Assembly (NCBI GenBank): GCA_041659505.1
Contig: JBAZYF010000003.1
Span: 22,026 to 86,025 of the forward strand
From: Parcubacteria group bacterium
Lineage (GTDB): Bacteria; Patescibacteriota; Minisyncoccia; Moranbacterales; UBA2206
DNA: 64,000 nucleotides
Direction: 5' to 3'
Shown: positions 38,225 through 60,850 of the stretch, in pieces
Position numbering within the stretch: the stretch's first letter is position 1
Layout: each line of letters opens with the position of its first letter
The notes under the pieces: generated by a model
What the model was told of the DNA's origin: nothing
Seen by the model: the letters and a program-made list of their open reading frames with translations, nothing else
The model's database searches: none
Position numbers and translations under genes: made by a program

Positions 38225-39256
38225 AAAAATAACGATGAAAAAAATGAAAAGAAGTTCTCGCATTTATCAAAGAGTGAACGGAGTGAGTTATCCATTTTAA
38301 GAAAGAAAAGCTATACGTTGCGAGAGATTGCCAAGGTCATGCAACGCAGTATTTCCACTCTTTCCGATGAGTTGAAACGGAATCAAGTTAAGGGAATCTA
38401 TGACGCAAAAAAAGCCCAACATAAAGCGTACGCCAGGAGAAAGTATAGCAAGTATCAAGGAATGAAAATTGTTTCAGAAAATAGACTGAGAGATTTCGTA
38501 GAAGAAAATTTATTGGACGGTCAGTCTCCGGAAAACATCTCGGGACGAATCAAGAAAGTTGAGAAAGAATTGCCAACAGTTTCCAAGGATAGTATCTATC
38601 GTTTCATTGAAAGTCCCTATGGCAGACAGATTGAGTTTGCCCGCACGAACGGCAGAAGAAAAGGAAACAAGCGCGGAAAGAAGAAGCAACCCATTGCAGA
38701 CAGGAACTTCATTAACGAACGGCCTGAGAGCATAAATGAGCGGTCTGAGATTGGTGACGCGGAAGCGGACTTCATTGTTTCGGGAAAAGATGGCAAAGGT
38801 ATTTTGCTGGTAATTGTAGACCGAAAAACCAGAGCGGCTTTTGTTGAAAAAATTACAGATGTTTCAATCGAAAATGTGCATTTGTCTTTTGTAAAAATTC
38901 AACAAAGATTTCCGGAAATGAAAACCATTACCACGGACAATGATATCCTTTTTCGAAAACATAAGGAGTTGGAAAAATTACTTTCGATAAAAATATATTT
39001 TTGTCATCCATATCATTCTTGGGAAAAAGGCACGGTGGAAAACACCAATAAATACATCCGCAAAGATATTCCGAAGGAAAGTAATATTTCCAAATATTCC
39101 AAAAAATTCATTCTCTCCGTCGAAGAGAAATTAAACAGAAGATTTATGAAATGTTTAGCGCATGCTACCCCAAACGAACTGCTGAAAGAATTTAGAAACC
39201 AAAAAAATCGCCAAGTGGCGAAATGTAAAAGTGTTCGGATTGAGCCCGTCGGGTAG
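38225..39256 (+). mobile_element. IS30-family insertion sequence transposase. The N-terminal HTH is encoded in a different frame from the nearest upstream ATG (poly-A tract at 38238-38250).
   Basis: DDE region HPYHSWEKGTVENTNKYIRKDIPK. Frame-2 reading upstream of 38318 gives LSKSERSELSILRKKSYTLREIAKV, matching the IS30 HTH, but with no in-frame ATG back to the stop at 38222. The ATG at 38235 or 38244 in frame 0 ends after 21 aa. Terminal inverted repeats could not be delimited. Confidence 0.75.
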
Positions 39257-39316: not shown

Positions 39317-39871
39317 CTAGAGCAATCCGAGATAGTCAAGCCCAATATATCCCACCTCGATATCAGTATTCTTTCCACTCTTAAGTAATTCTCGAAATTT
39401 TTGCAGGGACACCAACACCACCTCCGCAAATTCATTTTTACCCAAATTTTGCTCTGCCACTTTTTCGCAATCGGTTACAACAACGCAATATCTGTTCATT
39501 GTGGAATAAGCGCAATCAAAAGCTGTAGCCACCAGCCTAGCCCTACCCTTATAGCCAGTCTCTTCGAGGAGCTCTCTTTCCCCGGCTTGCTCTGGAGTCT
39601 CATTTGCGTCGACATATCCACCAGGAAGCTCGTTTAAAATTTCATTTGGACCGGGACGAAATTGCCTGACAAGAATTATTTGCTGGTCTTTCGTTATGGC
39701 TAAAATTCCGGTAGCTGGACCTTCTTTCTTTAAATAAAAATCACTTTCCTTGCCATCAGGCATTTTATACATCACTTTTTCAATTTTTCGGCTGTATTTC
39801 TGGAAGGCTATTTCTCTAGACAGCTCTTCCCATTTTTCGACTTTGGTTGGCATAAGATTAGGCACAAACAA
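39317..39871 (-). CDS. Nudix hydrolase (ADP-ribose pyrophosphatase-like), fifth Nudix in the window
   Basis: GGYVDANETPEQAGERELLEETGY. Confidence 0.8.
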   Translation of the reverse strand: MFVPNLMPTKVEKWEELSREIAFQKYSRKIEKVMYKMPDGKESDFYLKKEGPATGILAITKDQQIILVRQFRPGPNEILNELPGGYVDANETPEQAGERELLEETGYKGRARLVATAFDCAYSTMNRYCVVVTDCEKVAEQNLGKNEFAEVVLVSLQKFRELLKSGKNTDIEVGYIGLDYLGLL

Positions 39872-39875
39872 ATAC

Positions 39876-40904
39876 TTAAATAAGCCATGGCTCTATTATC
39901 CCAAATCTTTTATTCTCACAATCAATCTCCGCGTTGGCGCCCAGTGGCAAAACGAATTGTGGATCAGTGTGACCAAAGTCCATATTGGTTATGATTGGCA
40001 AATCTGCTCGGCCGAATTCATCCTTGACAATAGTGATGATTCTTTTCTCCAGCTCTAGTTTTTCTTCCGCAGAATAATCTCGCGCTCGACCAAAAACAAT
40101 TCCATTGATTCGATCAAATATTCCTTGCATTCCGTAATTTCTAAGCTCGTGATCTATTTCATGTATTGTTGGTTTTTCTTCTGATGTTTCCAGGATTAAG
40201 ATCTTGCCGTCCCAAAATTCCGATTTTGGCCAAAATTGGGTGCCCTTCATCATTTCCAAAACTTCGATGCAACCACCAAATAATTCGCCTCTCACAATCC
40301 CCTTTCCTTGCAAAAATTTCCAACCATCATCTTTTTTGAATTCCTTTGTTTTTCCAAGATTATTTTCATCACTCCAATCCAAATAACCATCAGCATATTC
40401 TCCATAAGGACTATATGCATAAGTAGCTCTTGGTTCAAATAGCATTTCTTTAACATGACGCTCAAAACTTTCCGATAAATTTTTCATCTGCGAAAAACCC
40501 GCCATAATTGATGGGCCATAGAAAGTAACCAGCTCCAATTGATTGCAAAATGCGTGAATTGTTGTTGTGTCAGAAAAACCCAAAAGTATCTTTGGATTGT
40601 TTTTGATAATTTCCTTATTGAGATAGGGCAAGATCCGTACTGAGTCATCTCCTCCGATTGAAGTAAAAATAGCTTTTACTTCTGGATCAGAAAAAGCATC
40701 ATTGATATCTTTCGCGCGAACTTCTGGATTTTTGCGTAGATAATCAGCATCCGCTCGAGCAGTTGGATATTCTTTAATTTTCAGCCCCCAGTTCGTAAGA
40801 ATTTTCAGTCCATTTTCATAGACATGCGGAAAGACGCTTGGGCCACCCCAAGAAGGAGAAACAATTGCGACCGTGTCGCCTGGTTTTAGTTTTCGTGGAA
40901 GCAT
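39876..40904 (-). CDS. LD-carboxypeptidase, peptidase S66 family (LdcA/MccF-like)
   Basis: 342 aa. Ser-nucleophile motif LLGFSDTTT. Overall S66 architecture. Confidence 0.8.
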   Translation of the reverse strand: MLPRKLKPGDTVAIVSPSWGGPSVFPHVYENGLKILTNWGLKIKEYPTARADADYLRKNPEVRAKDINDAFSDPEVKAIFTSIGGDDSVRILPYLNKEIIKNNPKILLGFSDTTTIHAFCNQLELVTFYGPSIMAGFSQMKNLSESFERHVKEMLFEPRATYAYSPYGEYADGYLDWSDENNLGKTKEFKKDDGWKFLQGKGIVRGELFGGCIEVLEMMKGTQFWPKSEFWDGKILILETSEEKPTIHEIDHELRNYGMQGIFDRINGIVFGRARDYSAEEKLELEKRIITIVKDEFGRADLPIITNMDFGHTDPQFVLPLGANAEIDCENKRFGIIEPWLI

Positions 40905-40953
40905 AAAATTATATCAAAACCATTTCTTTTTCATTTTCAAAATATTACTAGGC

Positions 40954-41439
40954 TTATTTCTGCTTATTCAGTTTGCTTAAAATAACATTGGCTGTTTCTC
41001 TTGGGGTTTGATTCGTATTGTCGATAACTTCTCCAAAGGCGGGATTATTAATCCCAATGGAATAGTGATGCTTAATTCTTTCTTTTTCCCATTCGTTTAG
41101 TTCTCGCTCTCCTCTGTTTTTCGATGCTTCTTCAATTTTAGGATTTAAGGTGAAAACCAGAATCTCAGCATCATCTTTTAGTTTTTCTGTGAGATATTCA
41201 TAATTCTTTTGTGAAAGCGGATATGGGACAATCACGTCAAATTTTCTCTTGGTAAAATTTTTAATTACCGAAACAGCATTTTCCAAATTTAGCTCTATTT
41301 TTTCCTCAATTGGCATCCATTCAATAAACGCCGAAAGACTATCAATTTCAACCACAGCAGATTCCTTAATCTCCTGTGCTAAAATTTTTGCAATAGTGCT
41401 TTTGCCTGAATTGATTGAACCATTGATAAATATAATCAT
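40954..41439 (-). CDS. Small P-loop kinase (AAA_33 / chloramphenicol-phosphotransferase-like)
   Basis: Walker A INGSINSGKST. 161 aa. Confidence 0.6.
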   Translation of the reverse strand: MIIFINGSINSGKSTIAKILAQEIKESAVVEIDSLSAFIEWMPIEEKIELNLENAVSVIKNFTKRKFDVIVPYPLSQKNYEYLTEKLKDDAEILVFTLNPKIEEASKNRGERELNEWEKERIKHHYSIGINNPAFGEVIDNTNQTPRETANVILSKLNKQK

Positions 41440-41481
41440 ACTTTCTTGACATCTTTTGTCTGGTTTTATATGCTCATATTA

Positions 41482-42552
41482 TTATACTCCGATATTTTCG
41501 CTATCCAATCCCACCCTTATCATATCCACAACCTGATCCATTACACCACCTAATCCAACAGTTAATCTGATGTATCTTGCTAATGGATTTGGCGTTTCTT
41601 TAAACTCTATATTATTGTTCACAAAAATTTTTACTACTGCTTCTCTATACTTACCAAAATCGACTAAAATAAAATTGCCACCACCCTCAATTACATCTAA
41701 TTCTAACTTTCTTAAATTATTAGCGAACTTTTTTCTCGCATTTATTATTTTTTTAACAGAAGTTCTCAAAAATTTACCATCAGAACAAACCACTTCAACT
41801 GCTCTTGCCGCCAGCGAAGTTATTTCTCTGAATGGTTTAAATTTTCCTATCATTCTAGCTAATCTTTCTGCGGTTAATATATATCCGATTCTCAGACCAG
41901 CCATCCCAACATTTTTGGAAAAGCTACGTATAATAATAACATTTGAAAATTCATCGACCAATGAAGAAGCATCAATACACCCAAAATCAGCATATACCTC
42001 ATCGATTACCACCAAGATATTTAATCTTTCGGTTTTTTTGATAAACTCTCGTAGCCTATCAATAGTAAAGATGTAACCCGTAGCACCATTTGGATTAGCA
42101 ATAAGAGCTACTTTCACTTCAGGTGAAATTAATTGAGACAAGACATCATCAGAGCATTTTCCTTCATTGCCACAATAAACTTCAATCAACTTACAATCTA
42201 GTTCCTGTGAATGTATTTTATACATTTCAAACGTCGGAGCAACAGTTGCAATGACATCGCCGGGATCACAAAATGTCTCTAGTATCATTTTCATTGCACC
42301 GTCAGCTCCATTTGACAATATCAATTTTTCATTAGGCTGTTTTAAATATTGAGACAATGCGTCATACGCTCTATTAACTTCAGGATAAGCACTAGCCATC
42401 TCCGCCGAAAATCCTTTTATTATTTTCTTGAATAAGGGTTTTGGCATGGAAGGAATATATTCATTCATTCCTAATCGAACCCTATCCAGTCTAGTAAGAA
42501 AATCTTGATTTTTACGTACAATATTATTTACGTGTTTTCTGCAATTAATCAT
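41482..42552 (-). CDS. Class I/II PLP aminotransferase (HisC-like; histidinol-phosphate/aromatic aminotransferase family)
   Basis: PLP-lysine motif SFSKNVGMAGLRIGY. Confidence 0.8.
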   Translation of the reverse strand: MINCRKHVNNIVRKNQDFLTRLDRVRLGMNEYIPSMPKPLFKKIIKGFSAEMASAYPEVNRAYDALSQYLKQPNEKLILSNGADGAMKMILETFCDPGDVIATVAPTFEMYKIHSQELDCKLIEVYCGNEGKCSDDVLSQLISPEVKVALIANPNGATGYIFTIDRLREFIKKTERLNILVVIDEVYADFGCIDASSLVDEFSNVIIIRSFSKNVGMAGLRIGYILTAERLARMIGKFKPFREITSLAARAVEVVCSDGKFLRTSVKKIINARKKFANNLRKLELDVIEGGGNFILVDFGKYREAVVKIFVNNNIEFKETPNPLARYIRLTVGLGGVMDQVVDMIRVGLDSENIGV

Positions 42553-42838
42553 AATGAGAAAATTATTTTTTAATTATCAAAAGCTCTATTTATAAAAATA
42601 AAAGGATACCCTCATATTTCTATAGTATAACTAAATAAATTTTTATTCAAGGCCTAGCCTAATCCTAGCCTAATCCCCGTTTGATTTAAATAACAAAATA
42701 AAACCAATAGCCCAATAAAAATAGTGAAAAATTGACTAAAGTGCTAATATTATGATATACATATAGGTCAGCTGGACTTAATTATATAAAATACAGCATG
42801 TTATGTTTTGACCTATAATAACTCATTGTCTTAGGCTT

Positions 42839-44749
42839 ATGGGCATATCACAGAAAATAAAAGCGGATTTAAATATTAAGCGACACGTATCAATATTGAA
42901 AGATATGATTTTTACTATTGATGAAAAGAAAAGATTAATAAGTTTATTCATTAACGGGGTTTTTTTAGAATTACCAAGATTACGGCTAGAAGCACCTTTC
43001 ATAGTAAAAACAGAAACAGGAATTATTACCATTGAAGATCTCGAAACTCATCCTATGAATTTAGCTAATAGATGGGGCATTTTAAAAGATTTGCCAGATT
43101 ATAAAATATCCGATCACCAGATGAGATTTATTATTACGTTTAAAGGATCAAATATCTTTGAAAGCTATATTCTTCCAAAAATTCTAGAGGAAGCTGAGCC
43201 AATTGCTCGAGTTATCCTCCAGGATAAAAAATTACCATTACCATTTATTATTGAAATGGCGGAAGTAAAATATGGAAAGATTCAATCCATAATACCACAA
43301 AAGCCAGAGGGACAATCGAAGATTCTTTTAGGTACTCAAATATTGGGACATGTTCAGGACGCGGCAAAAATTCTGCGATGGGCAAACGAGAATGGAACGT
43401 TGCAGACTAAATGGAGGTTTGCTTTGCCAGCAACAAAACGAACTGAAGTTACTAAGGATGCTTTGCGAAACGAAAGCGTTCCGGTAGATGAGTTAATTAT
43501 CGATTGGTCGTATGCGGGTGGAAAAGATTTTAGGACTGGCTATGGATATAAAGAAGATTTTAGTAAACAAGAGTCATTTTCAACCGTTGCCGCATTTGTA
43601 GCTGCAAATACTAGATTGTGCGTTGATGTCGCAAAGGGAAAATATGCCGTTGTTTCAACTAATTTTCGAGCAGAAACACAAATAATGAAAGAGATCAATC
43701 CGAATATAATAACCGTTGGAGTTTCACATACATTTCTAACAGGAAAACTAAAGGAACGTATTAATCTGCATAATGATCTCCCCAGGCTTGCCAAAATGCT
43801 TCAGCAAGTACAAGAATCACTTGACCTTGTGCCAAAGAGAGTCGTCAAATTGGGAGGAGATATAAAATGCATCGACTATTATTGGAAAGTTAGCAATGAA
43901 AAAATGCGAATGCTTGATACATTATTATATCGTACTTTCAATATCGATTCGAAAATTACATTGCAACTCAATGATACAACTCAAGTTATTCAGATTCCCT
44001 TGGCAATTCCCGATATAAAAATAACAAAAGAAAAAGCTAGAAAAAATATTGCTTCTATCGTAGGTAAAAAATTATCGCCAACGGATAAAGTAATCATACT
44101 TTCTGGAGAAAGTAATGACGGATCATTTAAAAAAAGAGCACGAGAAGTTCTTGAATTCGCAAAATCACATCCCAATATTCATGTTATCATGCCCTTAGAA
44201 ATTAATGACGAAAGAATCTCCGGAATTGATGTACCGGAGAATGCTTATGCAATAGGCTTCCGAAAGGATTGGGGTGAAATTATCCCAGGAGGAGACATTG
44301 CTTTTATTAGAGGAAGTTGGGGTGAGCTAATTGATTTAGTATTTTCAGAAACAATCCCCATAATTACTTCCCCCGGCACGGTTCCAACGGATGCCGACTT
44401 AGGTACTACTCAATTTCTCACTGAAGTATCGGAAGAACGTGCTTGCAACATATCATTACTCGTAGAAACGCTACAATCACAGGGCGTGAAGACAAAAACA
44501 ATAAATGGATTATTAGTTGATTTTAGCAATACCCTAGATAAATACACCTTGCAAGAAGCAATAAAACACGCCTTAAGACCTAACGTTGCAAATGAAATAC
44601 GGTCAGCTCTTTTGAATATTCCGAGAGGTGTTTCTGGATGTATTGGAAAATTGCACGAACAACTATTGAGCCAAAAAAGGATATTTTCGGCTAGAGAAAT
44701 TATAAAGATACAAAAAAATATTTGGAGCCAAGATAAAACAGCACAATAA
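42839..44749 (+). CDS. Hypothetical 636-aa protein with C-terminal GT-B (MurG/UDP-glycosyltransferase)-like region
   Basis: Only plus-strand gene in the cluster. C-terminal AFIRGSWGELIDLVFSETIPIITSP resembles the GT-B nucleotide-sugar binding loop. N-terminal 400 aa unassigned. Confidence 0.45.
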   Translation: MGISQKIKADLNIKRHVSILKDMIFTIDEKKRLISLFINGVFLELPRLRLEAPFIVKTETGIITIEDLETHPMNLANRWGILKDLPDYKISDHQMRFIITFKGSNIFESYILPKILEEAEPIARVILQDKKLPLPFIIEMAEVKYGKIQSIIPQKPEGQSKILLGTQILGHVQDAAKILRWANENGTLQTKWRFALPATKRTEVTKDALRNESVPVDELIIDWSYAGGKDFRTGYGYKEDFSKQESFSTVAAFVAANTRLCVDVAKGKYAVVSTNFRAETQIMKEINPNIITVGVSHTFLTGKLKERINLHNDLPRLAKMLQQVQESLDLVPKRVVKLGGDIKCIDYYWKVSNEKMRMLDTLLYRTFNIDSKITLQLNDTTQVIQIPLAIPDIKITKEKARKNIASIVGKKLSPTDKVIILSGESNDGSFKKRAREVLEFAKSHPNIHVIMPLEINDERISGIDVPENAYAIGFRKDWGEIIPGGDIAFIRGSWGELIDLVFSETIPIITSPGTVPTDADLGTTQFLTEVSEERACNISLLVETLQSQGVKTKTINGLLVDFSNTLDKYTLQEAIKHALRPNVANEIRSALLNIPRGVSGCIGKLHEQLLSQKRIFSAREIIKIQKNIWSQDKTAQ

Positions 44750-44761
44750 TACCGCAAGAAT

Positions 44762-45733
44762 TTACCCTATATTTCCAGGTATAGAACAATGCTTACACAT
44801 ATTAATATTGTTCTTTCCCTTAATAATGTTGTCTTGTATTTTTCTTCTTCCTTCAGTATCCCACCAATTATCATCCTTTAAAATATTACCAAGCTTATAA
44901 TCTGAATTATAATCATGACAACACAAGCAAATATCGCCATTTGCACTTACAACCAAATTTTCCCATGGCCATGCGCAACGACTTAACGCATATTGGCTGG
45001 AGACTTCCTTTGCTGAAGCTGTTTTGTATCTTGAATAATTGATATTTTTCGGTATAAATTTTAAATTTATTTTTCTATCTTCATACCCACCCATATAGGC
45101 ATTGAACGTTTTAAATACAACCTCATCAACTCCTATATTTTTGCAAATTTCTGAAAATTTTTCTATTTCATGCTCATTGTGTTTCATGACTACAAATTGA
45201 ACCTCAAGAGCAGGCTTTTTGGCGCCCATGTCTTTTTTGACTGCAATAAAATCCTTAATATTTTTTAATATTAAATTTAGATCGCCCCCTACTCGATATT
45301 TTTTATATGTATCATTTGACGCCCCATCAATAGAAATAGTGATATTATCTAAACCTGAGTTAATTAATTTTCTTGATAATTTTTTATTTAATAATAGTCC
45401 ATTCGAATAAATACTTACCATTTTTATTCCACTAACTTTCGCGAGTTTTACCATTTTAGCAATATCTGGATTTATCAATGGCTCACCATAATTAAATAAC
45501 GCTATTTCAATTACGCTTTTTTTTATTAACTTTATTATTTTTTTAAAATCATCCAAAGACATTATCCCCTTATTCTTGATCTTATTCATTCCCATAGGGC
45601 AAGAGCGACACTTTAGATTACACAAGCGACTCACCTCTATTCTAGCTCTTAATGGCATTGGAATCTTATGGAAACTCGCTTGTTCCTTTCCATGATTAGA
45701 AATACTATTAACGCCCAACGCGGATTTATTCAT
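44762..45733 (-). CDS. Radical SAM enzyme with C-terminal SPASM domain
   Basis: CNLKCRSC (Cx3Cx2C) near the N-terminus. C-terminal Cys cluster CLCCHDYNSD...NMCKHC. Confidence 0.8.
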   Translation of the reverse strand: MNKSALGVNSISNHGKEQASFHKIPMPLRARIEVSRLCNLKCRSCPMGMNKIKNKGIMSLDDFKKIIKLIKKSVIEIALFNYGEPLINPDIAKMVKLAKVSGIKMVSIYSNGLLLNKKLSRKLINSGLDNITISIDGASNDTYKKYRVGGDLNLILKNIKDFIAVKKDMGAKKPALEVQFVVMKHNEHEIEKFSEICKNIGVDEVVFKTFNAYMGGYEDRKINLKFIPKNINYSRYKTASAKEVSSQYALSRCAWPWENLVVSANGDICLCCHDYNSDYKLGNILKDDNWWDTEGRRKIQDNIIKGKNNINMCKHCSIPGNIG

Positions 45734-45778
45734 AATAATATATTTAATATTGATTAAAGGTTAAGAGATATGCAATGA

Positions 45779-47395
45779 TTATTTTAAAGGATGAGGATGT
45801 TCTGATTCTGAATCTGCCTTTGTATTCTTAAAATCAAACTGTGAATCAATATCCTTTTTGAGATCAACTAGGAATTTCACAAATTTAAGATTTGATTCTG
45901 TACTTGAATAAGGTGACATTATATAAGCTTTTAAGGAATAAAAGGGATGCGGATTGGCACCCGTAGAATTACTTGGCATCTCATCTATATAATATGGATT
46001 TCCTAGTTCAGAAATCTTTTTTAAAAAAAATGATGTGTAATTATTACGAACTACAGCTTCATCTTCCCAGTTAGAAAAAGAGACCTCCTTGGGTGTGCGT
46101 GGTATGAACATAACACAAACACCGAGACCTTTTGAATTTACAACTTCAAAATCCCCTGTTTTATTGAGTTTATTCTGAAGATCTACCGCTACTTCAGTAA
46201 GATATGCGACTAAACTTTGAAATCCCGTTACGCCTAGAACATTTAACGCAACATACGCCGAGTTTGGCCCATCGCCTGGCCTAGAATTCTCAATTGAATA
46301 TTTAAAAGGCCACTTCCAAAATTCAGGACTTTTATATAGGGAAATTTTACTTTTTACCATAAAAGCGCACGACATATATGGACAAAAGCCCATTTTATGA
46401 AAATCTATTCCAAAGGAATCGGCCTTATGAATATCTTTTAAATATTTTATTACTTCCGATATTCTTCCCAGCGCCACCGGCTCAATATTCAAAGGATTCG
46501 ACTTAAAATCATAATCCTTAAAGAAGATCCAGGGAAATGAAACTACGGCATCAACATGCACATGGGGCACATAACCCAATCCAAGTTCTTCAACAAGCCT
46601 ATCTCTTAGTTCAACTACTTTTTCAATAGGATCAACAACCATATTATTAGTTGATCCGCCTGAAATGATAATAGCAGCAATTTTCTTACCTTTTTTGGTT
46701 TGTTCCTTAATAATTCTTTCCATTTCCAAAAGGTCAACCCTACTATCATCACCAGTTTTTACTTTAAAAAAATTAGATGTCCCAATGCCCAGCCAATCAA
46801 CATCTTGTTTGTGAGCAGGATGTCCCGATGCTGTAGAGAGAACAATCACATCTTCTTTTACGCCTTGCTCAGAAGAATCTGGGGAACAATTCTTCAATCC
46901 TAATTTAACCCCATACATTATTGTTGCTTTTCCACCCCAAGTGAAAGTTCCTCCTGCATCCCGCCAATCCCAGCCAATATATTCTGCAATGGATTTCACA
47001 ACTTTCTGCTCTATCACAAGACTTTTTCCGGAAGCAGTATCCATGCAAAGATTAGGATTATACAAAGACGTAAACGTTTTAGCAGTAACGGTAGGAATAA
47101 TAGGAGATGCAACAACATTATACATTGAGTTAGGAGAATGCCATCGACAAGCGCCTTGAAACAATTCAGATATCAATGATGCAAAGCGCTCCTTTGATAA
47201 ACCCTCACTTGGTATTTCAAAACTCTCAATGGCAGATTCATCAGTTTCCGATTTAGATAAAAGGGTGCATTTTGATAAATCAGTGCTTTTTAGAATCTCG
47301 ACATGCGTATCTTCGATATCCTTAAGCAAAGAAGAAATTGAATCTGTCTCTGGATTATAAAACAAGTCTCTTATTTCTTTAGGTAATGTAACCAT
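45779..47395 (-). CDS. Group II PLP-dependent amino-acid decarboxylase (aromatic/Tyr/Glu decarboxylase family)
   Basis: 538 aa. SGGSTNNMVVDP, HVDAVVSFPW, and the FHKMGF lysine motif. Confidence 0.7.
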   Translation of the reverse strand: MVTLPKEIRDLFYNPETDSISSLLKDIEDTHVEILKSTDLSKCTLLSKSETDESAIESFEIPSEGLSKERFASLISELFQGACRWHSPNSMYNVVASPIIPTVTAKTFTSLYNPNLCMDTASGKSLVIEQKVVKSIAEYIGWDWRDAGGTFTWGGKATIMYGVKLGLKNCSPDSSEQGVKEDVIVLSTASGHPAHKQDVDWLGIGTSNFFKVKTGDDSRVDLLEMERIIKEQTKKGKKIAAIIISGGSTNNMVVDPIEKVVELRDRLVEELGLGYVPHVHVDAVVSFPWIFFKDYDFKSNPLNIEPVALGRISEVIKYLKDIHKADSFGIDFHKMGFCPYMSCAFMVKSKISLYKSPEFWKWPFKYSIENSRPGDGPNSAYVALNVLGVTGFQSLVAYLTEVAVDLQNKLNKTGDFEVVNSKGLGVCVMFIPRTPKEVSFSNWEDEAVVRNNYTSFFLKKISELGNPYYIDEMPSNSTGANPHPFYSLKAYIMSPYSSTESNLKFVKFLVDLKKDIDSQFDFKNTKADSESEHPHPLK

Positions 47396-47400
47396 ATAAT

Positions 47401-49365
47401 TTATTGAAGATTAAAAGTTTCTAGATGAATCTTTTTAGCTTCTTGATCGGATAATTCTTTATACGTAACTCTTAATGTGTATCTGACTGATTTTTCTAAT
47501 TTATATGTATCTGCTATATCTATTCCCCATATGCTATCCTTGTTCATCTTTTTATTAAGCTTTTCCAGATATTCGAAAATTGATTCTTCATTTTTTAGTT
47601 CGATATTCACATCTAAAAATATCAACTTTTGAGTAATTTCCACTACAGGATTATTTTTCTTTTCAGAAAGTAGTTCCACGGACTTATCTATATCTATTTC
47701 AGACGCATAGACATTCATTTTAATATCCTGAGGAATTAGCTTATACAGTATCCCTATACGCTGCTCTCCCGAATAAATATCCCAGCATGAATTAGGATTG
47801 GCTATTTCAGGTTTTATTTTTGACTCGAAATACTTTATATCGTCAAGTCCAAGCAATCGCAATAGAGACTCAACCCTATCTTTAAATTCGCTTAACGCTT
47901 CATTATTCGAAGTTGACATTACTCCGAGAGATTCACGCTCTATATAATTTTCATCTTTTTTACCAAAAATTTTACCAATCTCAAAAATATTCATAAAATC
48001 GACATTTTTCTTAAAATACTCATTCAATTGATCCAATAATCCTGTTATCATTGATTGTCTGAGATTCGGATAAATATCATTAACGGAATTTTGAGTAGAA
48101 ACAGTATCCCAATCAGTATGATTAACAAGGTTATTATCGTCGACTTTCGTTAACGGCCACGATAAGATTTCGTCAAATCCCAGAGTACTTAGAACATCTC
48201 TTATTTTATCTGCTAATATAATGTTCTTAGGAGTGATATTTTTAACAACTTCTAACTTAGGGATTTCATCTACAGGAATACGATTGTAACCATAGATCCT
48301 TAATACTTCTTCAACTAAATCTTCAGGGAGGGAAAGATCCAGCCTATATGCAGGAGGCGTAACAAGCAACAAATCCCCTTTCACTTCAACAACAAGACCA
48401 AGGCACTCGAATATATTTAACACGTCTTCTTCCTTAATTTCGATACCAGCGAACTTGCTTGGTAAGCCTGTTTTAAATTCTATTACAGGAGATACGTATT
48501 TTTGGGGATAATATTCAAATAAATCACTGGCTATTTTTCCGCCTCCATATTCCAAAATCAGAGAAACAAGTAAATTCATTGCATACTCGGATTCGCTCGG
48601 ATCAAGATCTTTTTCCAATCTGTGACTAGCTTCCGTAACTATATTTAAATTTCTTGAATTCTTCCTGACAACTGAACGGTCATAAACCGCAATTTCAGCA
48701 AGAACAGACTTTGTCTCTAAACTAATTGCAGCTTCGGTCCCTCCTACTATACCCGCTAAGGCTATAATATTTTTTCGATCTCTAATTATTAGCTCCGTAT
48801 TCTTTTGCAATTTTATGGAAGTTCCCATTAAAGTCGTCATTTCATCAAAACTATTATTTAATGACCAAGATAATTGTCCTTTAGTTTTTTTGTAATCAAT
48901 CAGATGCGACGGATACCCAGTAAGCAGCATCACATAATTCGATAAGTCTACTAAAAGATTTATACTATTTAATCCATAAAAATTCATATATTCTCTAAGC
49001 CAATCCGGAGAATCTACATTTGTGACATCATCTATTTTTATTGCTAAAACTCGTTTAACATGATCAACTGCTTCAACGCTAATATTTAATTTATCCTCGC
49101 CCTTGAAAATTTGTTTGACACCAGGTATTAAAACCTGAAGCCTATAATATGCAGCGACTTCTCTAGCTAATCCCATAACAGAAAGACAATCGGCACGATT
49201 TTGTCTTATTTCTAATCCTATTAAATAATCCTTGGCACCTTTATAAGAAACTTCTGTAAAACTATCCATCATAAAACCAGTCAGAGTTAAAGCCTCTCCA
49301 ACTTCTTTTGGACTAACATTTAAATCTGGCACCAATTCTTTAATTTGACTGTATAATACTTTCAT
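47401..49365 (-). CDS. pheT2: Second, divergent phenylalanine--tRNA ligase beta subunit (654 aa, lacks the N-terminal tRNA-binding OB domain)
   Basis: MKVLYSQIKELVPDLNVSPKEVGEALTLTGFMMD parallels the canonical MKYSFNWLKEL..LTMHSFEIEG. Retains B3/4, B5, catalytic-like and FDX-ACB regions. Overlaps pheS2 by 26 bp. Confidence 0.85.
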   Translation of the reverse strand: MKVLYSQIKELVPDLNVSPKEVGEALTLTGFMMDSFTEVSYKGAKDYLIGLEIRQNRADCLSVMGLAREVAAYYRLQVLIPGVKQIFKGEDKLNISVEAVDHVKRVLAIKIDDVTNVDSPDWLREYMNFYGLNSINLLVDLSNYVMLLTGYPSHLIDYKKTKGQLSWSLNNSFDEMTTLMGTSIKLQKNTELIIRDRKNIIALAGIVGGTEAAISLETKSVLAEIAVYDRSVVRKNSRNLNIVTEASHRLEKDLDPSESEYAMNLLVSLILEYGGGKIASDLFEYYPQKYVSPVIEFKTGLPSKFAGIEIKEEDVLNIFECLGLVVEVKGDLLLVTPPAYRLDLSLPEDLVEEVLRIYGYNRIPVDEIPKLEVVKNITPKNIILADKIRDVLSTLGFDEILSWPLTKVDDNNLVNHTDWDTVSTQNSVNDIYPNLRQSMITGLLDQLNEYFKKNVDFMNIFEIGKIFGKKDENYIERESLGVMSTSNNEALSEFKDRVESLLRLLGLDDIKYFESKIKPEIANPNSCWDIYSGEQRIGILYKLIPQDIKMNVYASEIDIDKSVELLSEKKNNPVVEITQKLIFLDVNIELKNEESIFEYLEKLNKKMNKDSIWGIDIADTYKLEKSVRYTLRVTYKELSDQEAKKIHLETFNLQ

Positions 49366-50383
49366 TTTCGTAATATTTATAACCTAAATTACCACCTAGC
49401 AAAGTTCTTATGTCCGTGATATTATATTTAGCCATCACCCATCGATCAAGACCCAACCCAAAAGCAAAACCCATCCATTTATCAGTATCAATTCCTGCTC
49501 TTTTCATTACGCTTGGATGAATCATTCCTGCGCCACCCATTTCGATCCAGCCCACACCCTTACACAAGGAACAACCTTCGCCATGGCAATTAAAACATTG
49601 CATATCTGGACCAACTCCTGGTTCGACTTCTGGATAATATTTATTGCGAAATCTGATGACTACGCCAGGCCCATACATCTTCTTGAATAAGTGGTTGAAT
49701 ATTCCGAATAAATCCTTAAGACTCGTCTTCTCAACGACCACTACGCCTTGATAATGATGAAATATAAAGTGGTTACTTTTATTAACGCTCTCGTTTCTGT
49801 AAACTCTTCCTGGAGAAACAATCTTAAATGGAGGCTTATAATTAGCCAATGTGCGAGATTCAATCGATGATGTTTGCGTTCTTAATAAATAATCCGGCTC
49901 TTTGATATAAATAGTATCCTGCATATCTCTAGCAGGATGGTCAAGAGGAACATTTAATCTTTGAAAGCAAAATTCATCTTTTTCAATCTCTGGTCCATCC
50001 ATTATGCTAAAACCCATGCTTACGAACAAATCGTTCATTTCTCTGATAGTCTTAGATATGGGATGGAGATGTCCAATTTTTGAAATAGAGTAATCAAAGT
50101 TTTCCGATTGCATCTTCAGGCTTTCAACCAATTCGCCTTTTTTCATTAAGTCTTCTTTTTTCCTAAATAAATCCGAAGCTTCCTTGTGGCGTTGCTGTAT
50201 TAAAGGTGCCATTGTCTTTTTTTCTTCAGGTAATAAATTTTTTATTTCCTTCAAAAAAGATTTAATAGTGCCCCTATCGCCTAAATATTTTCGCCAAATA
50301 ACATCCATCTCCACAAGGTTTTTTGCGGTTGTCAAGTCATTTTTAAGCTCATTTATTGAGTTTTTTATATCATTTTCTAGCAT
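49340..50383 (-). CDS. pheS2: Second, divergent phenylalanine--tRNA ligase alpha subunit
   Basis: Starting at the ATG at 50383, MLENDIKNSINELKNDL aligns to the canonical MLKSKIEEVKKQV. Motifs YPEVEPGVGPDMQC and IEMGGAGMIHPSV match FPFTEPSFEFDISC and LELGGAGMINQNV in pheS. The ORF track extends to a TTG at 50446. Confidence 0.85.
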   Translation of the reverse strand: MLENDIKNSINELKNDLTTAKNLVEMDVIWRKYLGDRGTIKSFLKEIKNLLPEEKKTMAPLIQQRHKEASDLFRKKEDLMKKGELVESLKMQSENFDYSISKIGHLHPISKTIREMNDLFVSMGFSIMDGPEIEKDEFCFQRLNVPLDHPARDMQDTIYIKEPDYLLRTQTSSIESRTLANYKPPFKIVSPGRVYRNESVNKSNHFIFHHYQGVVVVEKTSLKDLFGIFNHLFKKMYGPGVVIRFRNKYYPEVEPGVGPDMQCFNCHGEGCSLCKGVGWIEMGGAGMIHPSVMKRAGIDTDKWMGFAFGLGLDRWVMAKYNITDIRTLLGGNLGYKYYENESIIQSN

Positions 50384-50514
50384 AATAAAAAAAGAAGTAT
50401 TAAATAATACTATTAAAACAATACACCGTTCTTTTAAAAAAATCAATGACGCTTAGCACATAGCGTGACTTCCGCAGTTACTCGTTAAATGCGCGCTAAA
50501 ATAAAATATCCAAA

Positions 50515-50886
50515 TCAACCAGTTTCAATAATCTTCTTAACCTCCCCTACCAACTCAGTTGGGGTAAATTTTGATTTTGGGATAAAACCATTGGCGCCCA
50601 AGTCAATTGCTTTTTTGCGATTGTCTCCCTCGCCGATATTGCTGAGCATAATGATTTTGATGTTAGCGTCATAGTCACCACTGCGTAAACCTTTTATTAA
50701 ATCAAAACCATCTATTTCCGGCATAATCGAATCAGTTAGCACAATATCCACTTTTTCTTTTTTAGCGACGCTCAAGGCGATTTTACCATTTTCCGCCAAG
50801 AAGACTTCGAAGCCGGAATCGGTAAATTTCTTTTGATAAATCTCCAAGAGCATTTGATCATCCTCGGCGATAAGCAGTTTTGGCAT
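50515..50886 (-). CDS. Stand-alone response-regulator receiver (CheY-like)
   Basis: MPKLLIAEDDQMLLEIY..VDIVLTDSIMPEIDG. Confidence 0.8.
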   Translation of the reverse strand: MPKLLIAEDDQMLLEIYQKKFTDSGFEVFLAENGKIALSVAKKEKVDIVLTDSIMPEIDGFDLIKGLRSGDYDANIKIIMLSNIGEGDNRKKAIDLGANGFIPKSKFTPTELVGEVKKIIETG

Positions 50887-50890
50887 AATG

Positions 50891-51307
50891 TTATTTTACT
50901 AAATTATTAGACTCAATTTTGCTGAAAATTTCCTTGATCTTTTCCGCCATTTGTTTTGTGGTCAAACCTTTTCGAACAATGAAATCAACCACGCCTAGTC
51001 CTTTGACTTTTTCGCGTATTCCATTGTCATTTTCGTCAATAAAAATTACGACAGGAAAACGCTTCATTCTTTGGTCGTCTCGCATATGTTGCAAAATATC
51101 CAGGCCATTATGCTTGCCCACTTTTGTGTCTATGAGAACAATGTCAAAATGATAATCATACAAAAGATATTGCGTTGCGTCCCATTCGCTGTCAGTCGCC
51201 GTTACGACGACTCTTTCCGCCAGAAATTTATTTGACTCAGTCAAAATAGTGCCTGGATCGGTTATGATAAAAAATGCATATACTTCTCGTTTTATTTCTT
51301 CCGGCAT
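50891..51307 (-). CDS. Receiver-domain protein
   Basis: DIVLIDTKVGKHNGLDILQHMRDD. 138 aa. Confidence 0.6.
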   Translation of the reverse strand: MPEEIKREVYAFFIITDPGTILTESNKFLAERVVVTATDSEWDATQYLLYDYHFDIVLIDTKVGKHNGLDILQHMRDDQRMKRFPVVIFIDENDNGIREKVKGLGVVDFIVRKGLTTKQMAEKIKEIFSKIESNNLVK

Positions 51308-51319
51308 ATTGTTTATAGA

Positions 51320-52075
51320 TTATTTTTTATCCGCTGTTTGCTCTAGGATTTCTTTGGGAGTTTCAATCGGCAATTCAACAATGAATTGCGCGCCTCTGTC
51401 CTTGCCTTCGCTCTCTACTAAGATTCTACCGCCATTTTTTCCGATAATCAAGCGATCCACGTAGAGATTCAGTCCAAGCCCGTCAGGATTAAAAAGACTA
51501 GTGCCTTTTCCACGAGAAATTTTTTGGAACAGCTTTGGGGTTTCTTCTGGCGCTACGCCGATGCCGGTATCGGAAATGGTTATGCGGATATTTTTCTCCA
51601 TTTGTTCGAGTTTGACTGTCACGCCACCTTTGGTCGTATAGCGCAAAGCATTATCCACGATGTCCGAGATGACTTTGCGTACCTTGACGCCGTCAACAAT
51701 GAGTTCCGGTAATGTGGTTTTTGGTTTTTTGTATTCCAAATATAACCCTTTGTCCTTGGCTTTAGAGGTAAAAGTATCCACCACTTCTTGGCAAATCGCT
51801 TCCAGCTTCTCCGATGCGAATGTAAAATCCATTTTATTGAGTTCAATACGGGGAATATCCAACAGCTCCTCAACCAAATTCGCCATTCGTTCATTGCTGG
51901 CATATACGCCCTTCAGTATTTCATATTGCTTTGGGTCAACTTTTCCGTATGATCCTTCCAGGAGCATGGAAACATAACCCTTAACGGCGGTCAATGGCGT
52001 TCTCAATTGATGAGAGGCGATGGAGATAAATTCAGATTTGGCCTTGTCTAGCTTGATTGCTTCTTCTTGACTCAT
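51320..52075 (-). CDS. Cytoplasmic histidine kinase (HisKA + HATPase_c)
   Basis: H-box SHQLRTPLTAVKGY. G-box region DTGIGV. Confidence 0.8.
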   Translation of the reverse strand: MSQEEAIKLDKAKSEFISIASHQLRTPLTAVKGYVSMLLEGSYGKVDPKQYEILKGVYASNERMANLVEELLDIPRIELNKMDFTFASEKLEAICQEVVDTFTSKAKDKGLYLEYKKPKTTLPELIVDGVKVRKVISDIVDNALRYTTKGGVTVKLEQMEKNIRITISDTGIGVAPEETPKLFQKISRGKGTSLFNPDGLGLNLYVDRLIIGKNGGRILVESEGKDRGAQFIVELPIETPKEILEQTADKK

Positions 52076-52446
52076 TGTTTTTCCATTAACTTTTTAGTTT
52101 TCGCCAATAACTCACTTGGAGTAGTATGGGATTTATTCACAAAAGCATCCGCGCCAACTTCAATGGACATATCCTCATCTTCTTGTATGTCATGATATCC
52201 CGTGATGATAATTTTCATATTCGGATTACTTCCATCTTTGCGTATTTTTTTCACAATTTCAAATCCGTTCATAAGCAAGCTAACTAAAACCACATCAATT
52301 TTTTCTTTTTCAATAATATCAAAAGTCTCTTTTTCATTCAAAGCGATGAAAACCTCAAAACCAGAATCGGAAAACTTTTTCCGATACATATCATCCATCA
52401 TTTTGTCATCCTCCGCGATTAATATTTTTGGCATAAACTTTATCAT
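52072..52446 (-). CDS. Stand-alone response-regulator receiver
   Basis: MPKILIAEDDKMMDDMYRKKF..IDVVLVSLLM. Confidence 0.75.
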   Translation of the reverse strand: MIKFMPKILIAEDDKMMDDMYRKKFSDSGFEVFIALNEKETFDIIEKEKIDVVLVSLLMNGFEIVKKIRKDGSNPNMKIIITGYHDIQEDEDMSIEVGADAFVNKSHTTPSELLAKTKKLMEKQ

Positions 52447-54278
52447 TTTTTAATTGTATTTTGAACTTGCGCTAAGATTTCTTCAGGAGTTTTCACCGGC
52501 AACTCAATGATGAATTGCGCGCCCTTGCCTTCGCCTTCCGACTCTGCCCAAGTGCGTCCGCCGTGGGCTTCAATGGTCAATTTAACCAAATACAATCCAA
52601 GACCAGTGCCATTAGCATTGAGCTTGGCGACATCTTTACGAGAAAATTTAGCAAAAAGTTGAGAAATGTTTTCCTTGGAAATTCCACTGCCCGTGTCAGC
52701 TACCGTCACACGGACAACTTGACCAGCAATCGCTTTTTTGTCCTGATCCTCTAGGCTTTGCGGTTTATAGCGAGAAGACGAGTCTAGCTCGACCTTCAGG
52801 ACAATTTTCCCTGCTGGTGTATATTTTACCGCATTATCCACAAAATTGAAAATGGCCTCAAAAATCTTGCTTTTATCCAAAACCAATTCCGGCAGTGCTG
52901 TTTTTGGTTTTTCGTATTCAAGCACCAGATTCTTTTCTTTGGCGGTCGGTTCCACATTAACATAGACGCCCTGACAGATATCTTCCAGTTTTTCTTTCGT
53001 GAAAGTCAGCTCTATTTTCCCCGACTCCATGCGTGTAACGGCCATCAAGTCTTCCGTCAGGTGAATTTGCCTATCATTAGCAGCATTGATATTTTTCAAA
53101 ACCTTAATTTGATTTTCCGGTATCTCCCCATAGGAACCCTCCAAAAGCATTGCCAGGTAATCCTTGATTGGCGTTGGTGCATGCAATAGTTGATGATTAA
53201 CTAGACCGATAAATTCTGTTTTGGCATTATCTAGTTGCCTTAATTTATCATTAGCAATCGCCAAAGAATCTGCCATTCTTTGCAACTCCCCTCCTCTTTT
53301 ACTGATTTCCTTGTTAGCTACTTCCAAGGCTTCTTTTCTTTTACTAATTTCCTTATTAGCGATGCTTAATTTTACATTTTTTCTATCAATCTTTTTATTG
53401 GCAACTTCCAATTCTTCTTTCTGCTGGACTTCTTTTTTGACCGAGTTTATAAGCACCCAGCCAAAAATTACCAACAAAATCAAGGTAAATCCGGTTAAGA
53501 GTTGATTGACAAAAGATCTTATAAAAAAGAATTGAGAACCAATAAGGATGACCAGCCACACAACCAACGCCTGCACCAAAAGAACTTTTATATTTAAAAA
53601 TTTATATTTAGTAATAGAATATGCCACAAAAAACACAAACACTATAGCACCGATAGGGCCAAAAAAAGAAAGTTTATCTAAACCAATAAGAGGGGCCGTG
53701 ACATTAGTTACTAGCGCCCATGCAATTAAAGATGAAAAGCCTATAAGAACCAATTTTATTTGTTTTTTTATTTGATCCGTTCCTTTTTTAAACTTTTTAA
53801 ATAACACGATAAAGGACCAAAGCACATACGTAACAAAAACTACCGGAATTAGATAATAGAGCGAACCCAAAACTGCATCGCAATCAGGAGTAGAAGAATC
53901 AATATATTCAATATTGAATTTGGTTGGTGCTAAAAAAATAAAAGGTAAAATTGGAATAAAGATGAGCAAAACTTTTTTCAATGACACATTATTTTCATCA
54001 GGAAAAGCATAGCTGAAATAAGTGAAGATTGCGGGGACAAGAACACCAACTATGGAAAGCTTGGAATAAATTTCTGATATATTCGGATCAATACTAACCC
54101 AATCCATCATAGTGAATAGAATCCACAAACCTATACTTATGGATAATAGAAAGAACAAGCGATTTGTTAGATTTTTTTTGTTACTGAGAAAAACCAAAAA
54201 CCCTAACACCATAACCAGCACTAAGCAGGGTATGAATGTATAATAAACTAAACTTGGTGCAGGACTACACATAAGCAA
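52443..54278 (-). CDS. Membrane sensor histidine kinase (multi-TM N-terminus, coiled-coil repeats, HisKA/HATPase_c)
   Basis: About 7 N-terminal TM helices. Repeated EALEVANKEISKR coiled-coil units. C-terminal ADTGSGI and GTGLGL (HATPase_c). Confidence 0.8.
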   Translation of the reverse strand: MLMCSPAPSLVYYTFIPCLVLVMVLGFLVFLSNKKNLTNRLFFLLSISIGLWILFTMMDWVSIDPNISEIYSKLSIVGVLVPAIFTYFSYAFPDENNVSLKKVLLIFIPILPFIFLAPTKFNIEYIDSSTPDCDAVLGSLYYLIPVVFVTYVLWSFIVLFKKFKKGTDQIKKQIKLVLIGFSSLIAWALVTNVTAPLIGLDKLSFFGPIGAIVFVFFVAYSITKYKFLNIKVLLVQALVVWLVILIGSQFFFIRSFVNQLLTGFTLILLVIFGWVLINSVKKEVQQKEELEVANKKIDRKNVKLSIANKEISKRKEALEVANKEISKRGGELQRMADSLAIANDKLRQLDNAKTEFIGLVNHQLLHAPTPIKDYLAMLLEGSYGEIPENQIKVLKNINAANDRQIHLTEDLMAVTRMESGKIELTFTKEKLEDICQGVYVNVEPTAKEKNLVLEYEKPKTALPELVLDKSKIFEAIFNFVDNAVKYTPAGKIVLKVELDSSSRYKPQSLEDQDKKAIAGQVVRVTVADTGSGISKENISQLFAKFSRKDVAKLNANGTGLGLYLVKLTIEAHGGRTWAESEGEGKGAQFIIELPVKTPEEILAQVQNTIKK

Positions 54279-58956: not shown

Positions 58957-59264
58957 AGAAATAAAAAATTAACAATATTTTATTCTATTGTAGCAATAAA
59001 AATGTCGAGAAGCAATGGTGATGGGGGGCTGACGCCTTAATTTGATTCATTAAAATAAAAAGGTTATAATATAAATAACAATTCATTGCCTAAACCCCAC
59101 AAAAATGTGGGGCATGGCGCTAAAACCAACCAAGGTAGTAAGCTCCTCGTCCAGAGCACCTTGGTTGGTCGTGCATCGAAAGGTGTGCGGGTGACCTGAA
59201 AGGGTCATCGCTGGCGGGGAGCTTTTTGTATTCTCACCAGCAAAAATAATCTTAGAAACGGGAA

Positions 59265-60723: not shown

Positions 60724-60850
60724 GAAGAGACTTCGGGAGAAATCCCGAGGCGGAACCGAACTGCTTGTTGACATTGTTCGTCCAGTTAGTGTTGAAGTTG
60801 AGGTCGCCGTCGTTCCAGTTGAAGTTGGGCGCGTTCACGAACTCACCATC
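60724..60850 (-). repeat. DGR template repeat (TR), 127 bp, read on the minus strand
   Basis: Matches the VR at 114/127 positions. All 13 mismatches are A in this copy (minus strand) against G/T/C in the VR. Translating it gives the Asn-rich NFNWNDGDLNFNTNWTNNVNKQFG (AAC codons). Confidence 0.85.

Follow-up and report, generated by a model that had tools for sequence, protein, structure and literature searches.

A 64-kb stretch of DNA from a Parcubacteria group bacterium (contig JBAZYF010000003.1; hereafter the window) carries two complete phenylalanyl-tRNA synthetase (PheRS) gene pairs, the second of which heads a cluster of enzyme genes that recurs in related loci. We find that the conserved core of this cluster consists of PheRS, a group II pyridoxal 5′-phosphate (PLP) decarboxylase, a radical S-adenosylmethionine (rSAM) enzyme with a SPASM domain and a 636-aa protein, with or without a HisC-like aminotransferase. 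Seen across the related loci, the invariant parts of the module are an orphan glycosyltransferase resembling family GT1 (the 636-aa protein, which has a predicted glycosyltransferase B, or GT-B, fold), an amino-acid decarboxylase and a complete aromatic aminoacyl-tRNA synthetase (aaRS), to which the module usually adds a small-molecule rSAM enzyme and an aminotransferase or amidotransferase.

The reading that we favour, tentatively, is that of a mobile small-molecule pathway in which an aromatic amino acid is consumed and a companion synthetase protects tRNA charging. The strongest evidence comes from the related loci, where the aaRS is obligatory and interchangeable and the GT-B/decarboxylase core is conserved; the MccF-like peptidase, the kinase, the Nudix hydrolase and the "divergent active site" of the second PheRS, all drawn attention to in a preliminary description of the region, are the weakest.

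The module and its exchangeable synthetases

Loci were gathered by exact-protein look-ups and by genome and metagenome scans seeded with the 636-aa family and not with the synthetase, so the association with an aaRS is not circular. The loci, which carry the prefix L here, were compared with the window proteins by tblastn. Wherever the flank was usable, the 636-aa gene has an aromatic aaRS gene as its neighbour, in four unrelated architectures and over GT-B identities of 30-87%. The partner is a PheRS of the lineage that we call type B (PheST) in the window and L013; a monomeric protein with tRNA-synt_2d and FDX-ACB domains, just below the pheS_mito and SrmL cutoffs, in L015, L017 and L027; an SrmL-like ligase in L018, L026 and L034; and a tyrosyl-tRNA synthetase (TyrRS) in L016, L021, L022 and L023, which form clade 2 and whose GT-B proteins are 30-40% identical to that of the window.

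Orthologs of the decarboxylase, rSAM enzyme, GT-B protein and aminotransferase were found at 55-96% identity in L013, L015/L019, L017/L028, L027, L018, L026 and L033, and module genes accompany the 636-aa gene in L013/L024, L015/L019/L025, L017/L028/L031, L027, L018, L026, L029, L033 and L035. The block is therefore conserved in relatives, and the preliminary description was right that an extra PheRS is linked to the decarboxylase, rSAM, GT-B and aminotransferase genes. The aaRS gene is adjacent to the PLP decarboxylase gene in the window, L013, L015, L018, L026, L016 and L022, and the two enzymes change together: a 538-aa decarboxylase pairs with the PheRS types and an MfnA/PanP-like decarboxylase of 493 aa with TyrRS. 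Further partners in the TyrRS loci are an M20 peptidase, a GH10-like protein, an APH kinase and HAD/His phosphatases. The assemblies behind L021-L023 bear Gammaproteobacteria and Bdellovibrionota labels. The module also occupies the same chromosomal position in the window and in the Moranbacteria loci L015/L019 (PhzF-YceG, module, receiver-kinase), and L015/L019 holds a monomeric PheRS-like gene where the window has PheST, which amounts to a swap in place. The contig of L015/L019 (JAKLFF010000001.1, 470,928 bp) appears also to carry a canonical PheS, of the lineage that we call type A.

The monomeric PheRS-like proteins (L015:14589-15749, L017:4387-5526 and L027:7650-8789; 379-386 aa) combine a class II core with an FDX-ACB domain and score 243.7 against a cutoff of 258.35 on the mitochondrial pheS model. 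They represent a mitochondrial-type architecture in bacteria of the candidate phyla radiation (CPR, or Patescibacteria) that also appear to have canonical pheST. Bacterial tRNA-Tyr is normally long-armed. Two of the TyrRS loci contain a 73-nt tRNA-Tyr(GUA) with G1-C72 and a short variable arm, 0.5-1.8 kb from the GT-B homolog (L016:8102-8174 and L022:2569-2641), which may be half of a dedicated TyrRS/tRNA pair or may mark an integration site; L016 has two TyrRS genes. No tRNA was found in the clade-1 loci, with permissive settings included.

Several other loci bear on the company that these genes keep. Type-B PheST leads two further kinds of cluster: at L010:10001-20617 a pair with 86% identity to the PheS of the window's second pair (PheS2) is followed after 8 bp by four radical SAM genes, a 332-aa protein, an epimerase/short-chain dehydrogenase and an SrmL gene (446 bits; cutoff 300), and the cluster adjoins phage-like genes for a terminase, an integrase and a methylase; at L044:6982-18016 (Candidatus Pacebacteria) a pair 77% identical is followed after 23 bp by two rSAM/SPASM genes and a 346-aa protein, together with a GT4 glycosyltransferase, an AstE/AspA protein, an M24 peptidase and a carbamoyltransferase, making a third type of PheST-led cluster. 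Genes of aromatic pathways turn up repeatedly close to the modules. In L021 (8536-9522 and 15873-17817) prephenate dehydratase is encoded directly upstream of the GT-B homolog, with a gene resembling 3-deoxy-D-arabino-heptulosonate 7-phosphate synthase and a PhzF gene in the same locus; PhzF-family genes also lie some 7-8 kb from the module at window 33658-34506 and L015:1961-2818. The most distant GT-B homolog (30% identical; L023:1128-7720, labelled Bdellovibrionota) diverges from an operon for a TyrRS-like protein and a second, short aaRS-like protein of class Ic (321 aa), together with an AMP-binding enzyme, an amino-acid permease and an aldehyde dehydrogenase/LuxC-like reductase.

The second PheRS and the enzymes beside it

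The canonical pair of the window is the resident housekeeping enzyme, since the best matches of its PheS (PheS1) are PheS proteins of Candidatus Moranbacteria and the pair sits in a SecD-SecF-pheS-pheT order that is conserved in relatives. PheS1 and PheS2 are 33-36% identical and belong to two different lineages, and a recent tandem duplication was rejected on these grounds.

PheS2 matches PF01409 with 249.8 bits, barely passes TIGR00468 (241.1 against a cutoff of 237.45) and matches PheS α chains in the PDB at 6e-68. Its CPR relatives at 65-88% identity number more than 120; those with a lineage-level name are all Patescibacteria (Paceibacteria, Falkowbacteria, Minisyncoccales), apart from one labelled Clostridia. 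Its β partner, PheT2, has B3_4 (150.6 bits), B5 (67.5 bits) and CLM (82.3 bits) domains and aligns to positions 155-785 of the 798 in TIGR00472, at a score of 380.4 that is under the cutoff of 402.65. The N-terminal tRNA_bind domain with the oligonucleotide-binding (OB) fold (B2, PF01588) gave no match in PheT2, and FDX-ACB (PF03147) was not detected at E ≤ 1e-3. The loss of the OB domain, which the preliminary description had pointed out, is real and is lineage-wide: type-B copies 69-74% identical, with β subunits that are also short (653-655 aa), occur in housekeeping surroundings without cluster genes (L005, L007, L009), where they adjoin trpS and in one case lie near rpmH-rnpA-yidC-dnaA-dnaN.

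These copies also settle the meaning of the diverged active site. The canonical Phe-pocket motif FPFTEPS (E. coli F248, F250 and T251) is replaced by YPEVEPG in PheS2, and a change of this kind had been cited as an example of strong divergence. The PheS2 motif KYYPEVEPGVGPD is, however, common to the whole type-B lineage, and the YPEVEPGVGPD motif (YYPEVEPGVGPDMQC) that the preliminary description had highlighted is invariant across type-B CPR PheS, copies in housekeeping contexts included; it is thus a trait of the lineage and not of the cluster. PheT2 in turn keeps the equivalents of E. coli βH265, G318, E334, T354 and A356 in the editing site. Cluster-specific resistance substitutions were rejected as an inference, and so was a dead or truncated PheRS2, given the conserved active-site motifs and editing residues. 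From its sequence, PheRS2 is best classified as a normal member of a widespread short-β Patescibacteria PheRS (type B) that was imported into a type-A genome, and its lineage-typical motifs and editing residues predict a functional, editing-competent enzyme. PheS2 is not SrmL: it scores 101.4 bits on the SrmL model NF051887 (cutoff 300) and differs from SrmL in being a true α subunit with a β partner.

The 636-aa protein gave no sequence-level match in Pfam, NCBIfam or the PDB. An AlphaFold (AF2) model built from the family alignment (predicted local distance difference test 86.6, predicted template modelling score 0.86) has a two-Rossmann GT-B fold over residues ~160-636, in agreement with the glycosyltransferase-like C-terminus that had been guessed earlier. 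Foldseek ranked Kcn28 first (8.7e-10), followed by OleD/OleI, CalG4, EryCIII and VinC, at identities of 7-14%. Residues ~1-160 form a novel N-terminal β domain with no structural neighbour, and the fold comparison gave no support for an OB or a known tRNA- or RNA-binding fold there. The protein is soluble and basic (isoelectric point 9.05). The motifs TQILGH, RGSWGE and QF..SEER are invariant, and a resemblance to the GT1 His base and HxGxxxxE motif was seen by eye only. The family comprises 25 clusters at 90% identity, and a profile search returned 7 representatives at E < 1e-30 among 1.84 billion. We conclude from the model that the 636-aa protein has a predicted GT1-like glycosyltransferase fold behind a novel N-terminal domain, and that the family is extremely rare. 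It is set apart from the natural-product GT1 enzymes Kcn28, OleD/OleI, CalG4 and EryCIII by the 7-14% identity and by the extra β domain of 160 residues.

The decarboxylase is the best-conserved gene of the module, with orthologs 62-89% identical in all clade-1 loci. Its PDB matches are GADL1 (1.4e-16) and the tyrosine decarboxylases (TyrDC) of L. brevis and E. faecalis (~1e-11); it keeps the FHK catalytic lysine motif and is distant kin of GADL1/CSAD, of 2,4-diaminobutyrate decarboxylase and of the Enterococcus/Lactobacillus tyrosine decarboxylases. It is accordingly annotated as a putative, divergent group II PLP-dependent amino-acid decarboxylase.

The rSAM enzyme (323 aa) has the CX3CX2C motif at C38, C42 and C45 and further cysteines at 253, 269, 271, 272, 313 and 316, with a C-terminal auxiliary-cluster Cys motif and a SPASM match (PF13186) of 33.8 bits. 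Its best PDB matches are BlsE, Tes, MoaA and BtrN, which point to an enzyme of the small-molecule type, and its orthologs are 60-96% identical in L013, L015, L017, L027, L029 and L035. It has neither an N-terminal extension nor a recognition element domain (RRE) of the kind sought for ribosomally synthesised and post-translationally modified peptides, and no precursor peptide was identified nearby; a cluster for such a peptide was rejected for these reasons, the kin of the rSAM enzyme acting on small molecules. A prokaryotic viperin or defence system was likewise rejected: PADLOC gave only a generic rSAM match to pVip (60 bits), and the NCBIfam viperin score was 49.9 against a cutoff of 180.

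The aminotransferase scores 205 on the hisC model TIGR01141 (cutoff 276.55) and has orthologs 78-79% identical at the same position in L013 and L015. With the score below the cutoff and his genes never among the neighbours in relatives, an origin in a primary-metabolism operon (histidine or polyamine) was rejected, in keeping with the view taken in the preliminary description.

Proposed function and competing explanations

Under the reading that we tentatively favour, the pathway would start from the amino acid that its synthetase specifies (Phe in the window, Tyr in clade 2), which would be decarboxylated or transaminated, modified by the rSAM enzyme and glycosylated into a small molecule, and PheRS2 would travel along to keep tRNA-Phe charged during pathway activity. 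Protection might work in either of two ways. The product or an intermediate, as a Phe analogue or a mimic of the adenylate, could inhibit the resident PheRS, in which case PheRS2 would provide self-immunity by target replacement; or the decarboxylase pathway could drain a scarce, scavenged Phe pool, as has been proposed for tyrS in tyramine clusters. We infer the substrate, the order of reactions, the product and the protective role of PheRS2 alike. A swappable aaRS architecture, an aaRS class that tracks the decarboxylase and an ordinary PheRS2 are together the pattern expected if the pathway needs "another working PheRS", and the closeness of the GT-B protein to natural-product GT1 enzymes and of the rSAM enzyme to small-molecule enzymes like BlsE and BtrN supports the same proposal.

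Several points weigh against it. The decarboxylase substrate is guessed from the partner aaRS only, and a housekeeping role for the type-B copies elsewhere is putative. No natural inhibitor of PheRS is known to come with genes like these. Unlike the tyrosine decarboxylase (tdc) loci described below, the window cluster has no transporter or antiporter by Pfam and no T-box leader by Rfam. The tRNA-Tyr gene inside two clade-2 modules is a better fit to a tRNA-consuming pathway than to pure protection, and PheST of this type-B subclade also stands at the head of two further rSAM/sugar clusters (L010, L044), which could mean an active biosynthetic role.

The last two points lead to the strongest rival, tRNA-dependent biosynthesis, in which the extra synthetase would feed Phe-tRNA (Tyr-tRNA in clade 2) as aminoacyl donor to a module enzyme. 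This enzyme would join the amino acid to an amine or sugar scaffold built by the decarboxylase, the rSAM enzyme and the GT-B protein, in the way of VlmL/VlmA in valanimycin biosynthesis or of enzymes of the Fem and PEARL types. An aaRS with an anticodon-binding domain is always there, the short-armed tRNA-Tyr of L016 and L022 and the two TyrRS genes of L016 hint at a dedicated pair, type-B PheST leads three different rSAM/sugar operons, and the basic GT-B protein has an uncharacterised N-terminal domain of 160 residues. That domain is, however, neither OB nor a known RNA-binding fold; Pfam and NCBIfam recognise no Fem/GNAT, cyclodipeptide synthase, LanB/PEARL or MprF protein in the window cluster; there is no tRNA or tRNA-like RNA in the window or the clade-1 loci; and Phe-tRNA could come from the housekeeping PheRS, which leaves no obvious need for a further, complete editing enzyme. 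On balance we consider this explanation rather unlikely, though it deserves a place beside the protective one.

Improbable by comparison is the idea that the module acts on tRNA-Phe or another macromolecule, as in a hypermodification (compare GluQRS acting on tRNA-Asp, and glycosyl-queuosine), or encodes a new amino acid in the manner of pyrrolysine. Pathways of tRNA hypermodification make use of rSAM, PLP and GT enzymes, SepRS and PylRS descend from class IIc synthetases, and the SrmL-like and monomeric variants keep FDX-ACB and diverge in the amino-acid pocket. The PheRS2 pocket is nevertheless the housekeeping type-B pocket with its Tyr-editing residues intact, no dedicated tRNA occurs in clade 1, the GT-B fold is nearest to small-molecule GT1 enzymes, and the rSAM enzyme is not TYW1- or MiaB-like.

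We give equally little credence to the absence of any functional link, in which type-B PheST would be a mobile or duplicated housekeeping operon with an insertion hot spot downstream and hitch-hiking pathway genes: type-B PheST does occur in ordinary housekeeping neighbourhoods where the genes downstream vary, CPR genomes tend to group their aaRS genes (trpS-pheST, hisS-tyrS) and IS30 or integrase genes lie at the edges, but the GT-B-seeded search gave an adjoining aromatic aaRS in every flanked locus and in four architectures, the gaps from PheT to the next gene are 5-23 bp, and the aaRS shares the module's foreign composition.

To place the protective reading among known systems, three kinds of locus were compared. 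Mupirocin/IleRS, indolmycin/TrpRS, agrocin 84/LeuRS and borrelidin/ThrRS are examples of self-immunity, and self-immunity aaRS genes occur in producers of aaRS inhibitors (PMC7916415). Like these clusters, the window has a second complete synthetase of different structure, co-transcribed within a mobile, compositionally foreign enzyme cluster; it differs in that its enzyme set matches no described aaRS-inhibitor pathway, its host is a CPR bacterium and the architecture of the partner aaRS varies. The closest precedent in gene content, overlooked by the preliminary description, is the presence of aaRS genes in decarboxylase loci (tyrS-tdcA-tyrP and hisS-hdc), where tyrS has been proposed to secure charging in enterococci (PMC3315439). 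As in those loci, the aaRS of the window adjoins a PLP decarboxylase presumed to act on the same amino acid, and the similarity of the latter to TyrDC is weak; the window differs in having no antiporter (an AA_permease gene occurs in L023 only) and no T-box, and in its extra GT-B, rSAM and aminotransferase genes, which imply further processing of the amine. We conclude that an aaRS paralog in a pathway cluster follows a known logic, that the new elements are the orphan enzyme family and the pattern of exchangeable aaRS, and that the system is a member of neither precedent.

In valanimycin biosynthesis, VlmL and VlmA exemplify a pathway-dedicated aaRS and tRNA-dependent biosynthesis. The window resembles that system in having an extra synthetase inside a small-molecule cluster, and differs in that no aminoacyl-tRNA-dependent transferase is recognisable. 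SrmL (NF051887, "PheS-related mystery ligase") occurs in the rSAM-rich cluster downstream of type-B PheST in L010, and SrmL-like proteins replace PheST in L018, L026 and L034. Literature searches on SrmL, on duplication of CPR PheRS and on PheRS-linked or self-resistance clusters found nothing relevant; the statement of the preliminary description that no counterpart had been described holds for the literature searched, and both of the roles it proposed, self-resistance and a dedicated supply of aminoacyl-tRNA, are possible.

To our knowledge, CPR bacteria have minimal genomes, scavenge amino acids and show hardly any known specialised metabolism. If a mobile module always comes with an aromatic aaRS of its own, this would mean either a compound that interferes with Phe or Tyr charging or a use of aminoacyl-tRNA outside translation. 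We regard it as a rather speculative prospect that this is a new kind of pathway with a private synthetase, joined in some relatives by a private tRNA-Tyr of unusual structure, be it one with an aminoacyl-tRNA building block, whose product would be a glycosylated aromatic aminoacyl or amine compound, or the first family of PheRS/TyrRS inhibitors from CPR episymbionts with target-replacement immunity, whose compound could serve against hosts or competitors. Interference with charging would bear on how episymbionts manipulate their hosts and on new aaRS-targeting chemistry. The module offers testable parts, namely two co-resident PheRS enzymes, an orphan GT1-like family and a decarboxylase, and it ties SrmL and the monomeric, mitochondrial-type PheRS-like proteins of bacteria into one genomic theme.

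Gene layout, composition and mobile surroundings

Open reading frame calling followed by Pfam and NCBIfam scans of the window proteins reproduced all of the gene positions and identities given previously, including the 26-bp overlap of pheS2 and pheT2 (Table 1). The region end given at 50446 corresponds to an upstream TTG of the reading frame and had to be moved, the real PheS2 start being the ATG at 50383.

Table 1. Features of the window discussed in the text.
Feature	Position	Strand	Evidence or remark
Canonical pheS / pheT (type A; β 810 aa)	4848-5879 / 2412-4844	-	Resident pair
IS30 transposase	38318-39256	+	NF033563 208.8 bits; at island edge
Nudix hydrolase	39317-39853	-	NUDIX 61.4 bits; accessory, host-like composition
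S66 LD-carboxypeptidase, MccF-type	39876-40904	-	PDB matches; accessory
Small P-loop kinase	40954-41439	-	Weak CPT (25.3 bits) and Gar/GrdA (29 bits) matches; accessory
HisC-like class I/II aminotransferase	41482-42552	-	Aminotran_1_2 131.9 bits
636-aa orphan protein, module marker gene	42839-44749	+	No Pfam or NCBIfam match
Radical SAM/SPASM enzyme	44762-45733	-	Radical_SAM 70.7 bits, SPASM 33.8 bits
Group II PLP decarboxylase	45779-47395	-	Pfam Pyridoxal_deC; HK lysine motif
PheT2, 654 aa	47401-49365	-	B3_4, B5, CLM domains
PheS2, 347 aa, first gene of the operon	49340-50383	-	tRNA-synt_2d, TIGR00468
Two histidine kinases and three receiver proteins	50515-54278	-	Pfam annotation

PheT2 and the decarboxylase are separated by 5 bp and the decarboxylase and rSAM genes by 45 bp, which together with the overlap indicates that PheS2-PheT2-decarboxylase-rSAM form one transcription unit. 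This unit converges on the 636-aa gene, which a divergent gap of 286 bp separates from the aminotransferase-kinase-S66-Nudix genes. A terminator-like hairpin (50466-50449) lies between the two-component genes and PheS2; a promoter and terminator scan was uninformative, with match counts equal to those in shuffled sequence. No tRNA, tRNA-like RNA, T-box or other Rfam family was found in the cluster (Rfam E < 0.5; permissive tRNA settings).

The S66 peptidase is of the MccF type, as described previously, and not of the LdcA type, judging by the strength of its PDB matches (5f9m, "MccC family protein Ba3275", 1.7e-84; MccF, 1e-38; LdcA, 1e-10 to 1e-15). As parts of the system, however, the peptidase, the kinase and the Nudix hydrolase had to be given up: they are absent from all other module loci, including L013 with its 78-96% identical module proteins, and the peptidase has just one other match among the loci, a homolog 29% identical in L009, which is unrelated. 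With these genes missing elsewhere, the analogy to microcin C immunity rests on strain-specific neighbours. The two-component genes possibly regulate the operon; the aaRS side of L015 also has a receiver and a kinase, the kinase being 31% identical, a weak link.

Per-gene GC content at third codon positions (GC3) bore out the AT-rich block noticed earlier: it is 0.255-0.333 from the kinase to PheS2 and 0.40-0.50 in genes taken as native, with the kinase at 0.30 (island-like), the Nudix gene at 0.40 (host-like) and the resident pheST at 0.42-0.44. A low GC3 sets the module together with its aaRS apart from the flanks in the window, L013 and L015, and in L017, from a genome of 30% GC, the module matches the rest of the genome in composition. 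The island edge is marked by IS30 in the window and by a tyrosine integrase at the equivalent edge in L015. We conclude that the low-GC3 block at ~40.9-50.4 kb is a horizontally acquired, self-contained Patescibacteria pathway module. The arrangement of the window is not a chimera, since it recurs in independent assemblies of other samples (L002, L003, L004). A search of IMG/VR found no relatives of the 636-aa protein and no close type-B PheS, and with nothing relevant there a phage-borne origin was rejected.

Elsewhere in the window, the segment 12448-31210 is mobile or prophage-like: it encodes a tyrosine integrase at 12448-13620, a protein of 1159 aa at 14999-18478 whose LPD38 domain is of the "large polyvalent protein" kind, and a P22-like portal protein at 29348-31210. 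Near the two-component genes, a reverse-transcriptase gene (59265-60311, minus strand; RVT_1 match, 177 bits on the PADLOC reverse-transcriptase model) has a LOOT RNA (Rfam RF03000, 93.5 bits; 59087-59209, plus strand) 56 bp off its 3′ end, on the opposite strand. A patch of ~900 bp within 60731-62100 is GC-rich (57-60%, the window as a whole having 40%) and matches nothing in Pfam or Rfam; a 130-nt sequence is directly repeated there with 89% identity (60731-60860 and 61266-61395). Flanked by a Schlafen/AlbA_2-HATPase protein with a C-terminal helix-turn-helix and a 443-aa HNH endonuclease (57574-58956 and 62396-63727), the reverse-transcriptase neighbourhood looks like a defence or mobile island.

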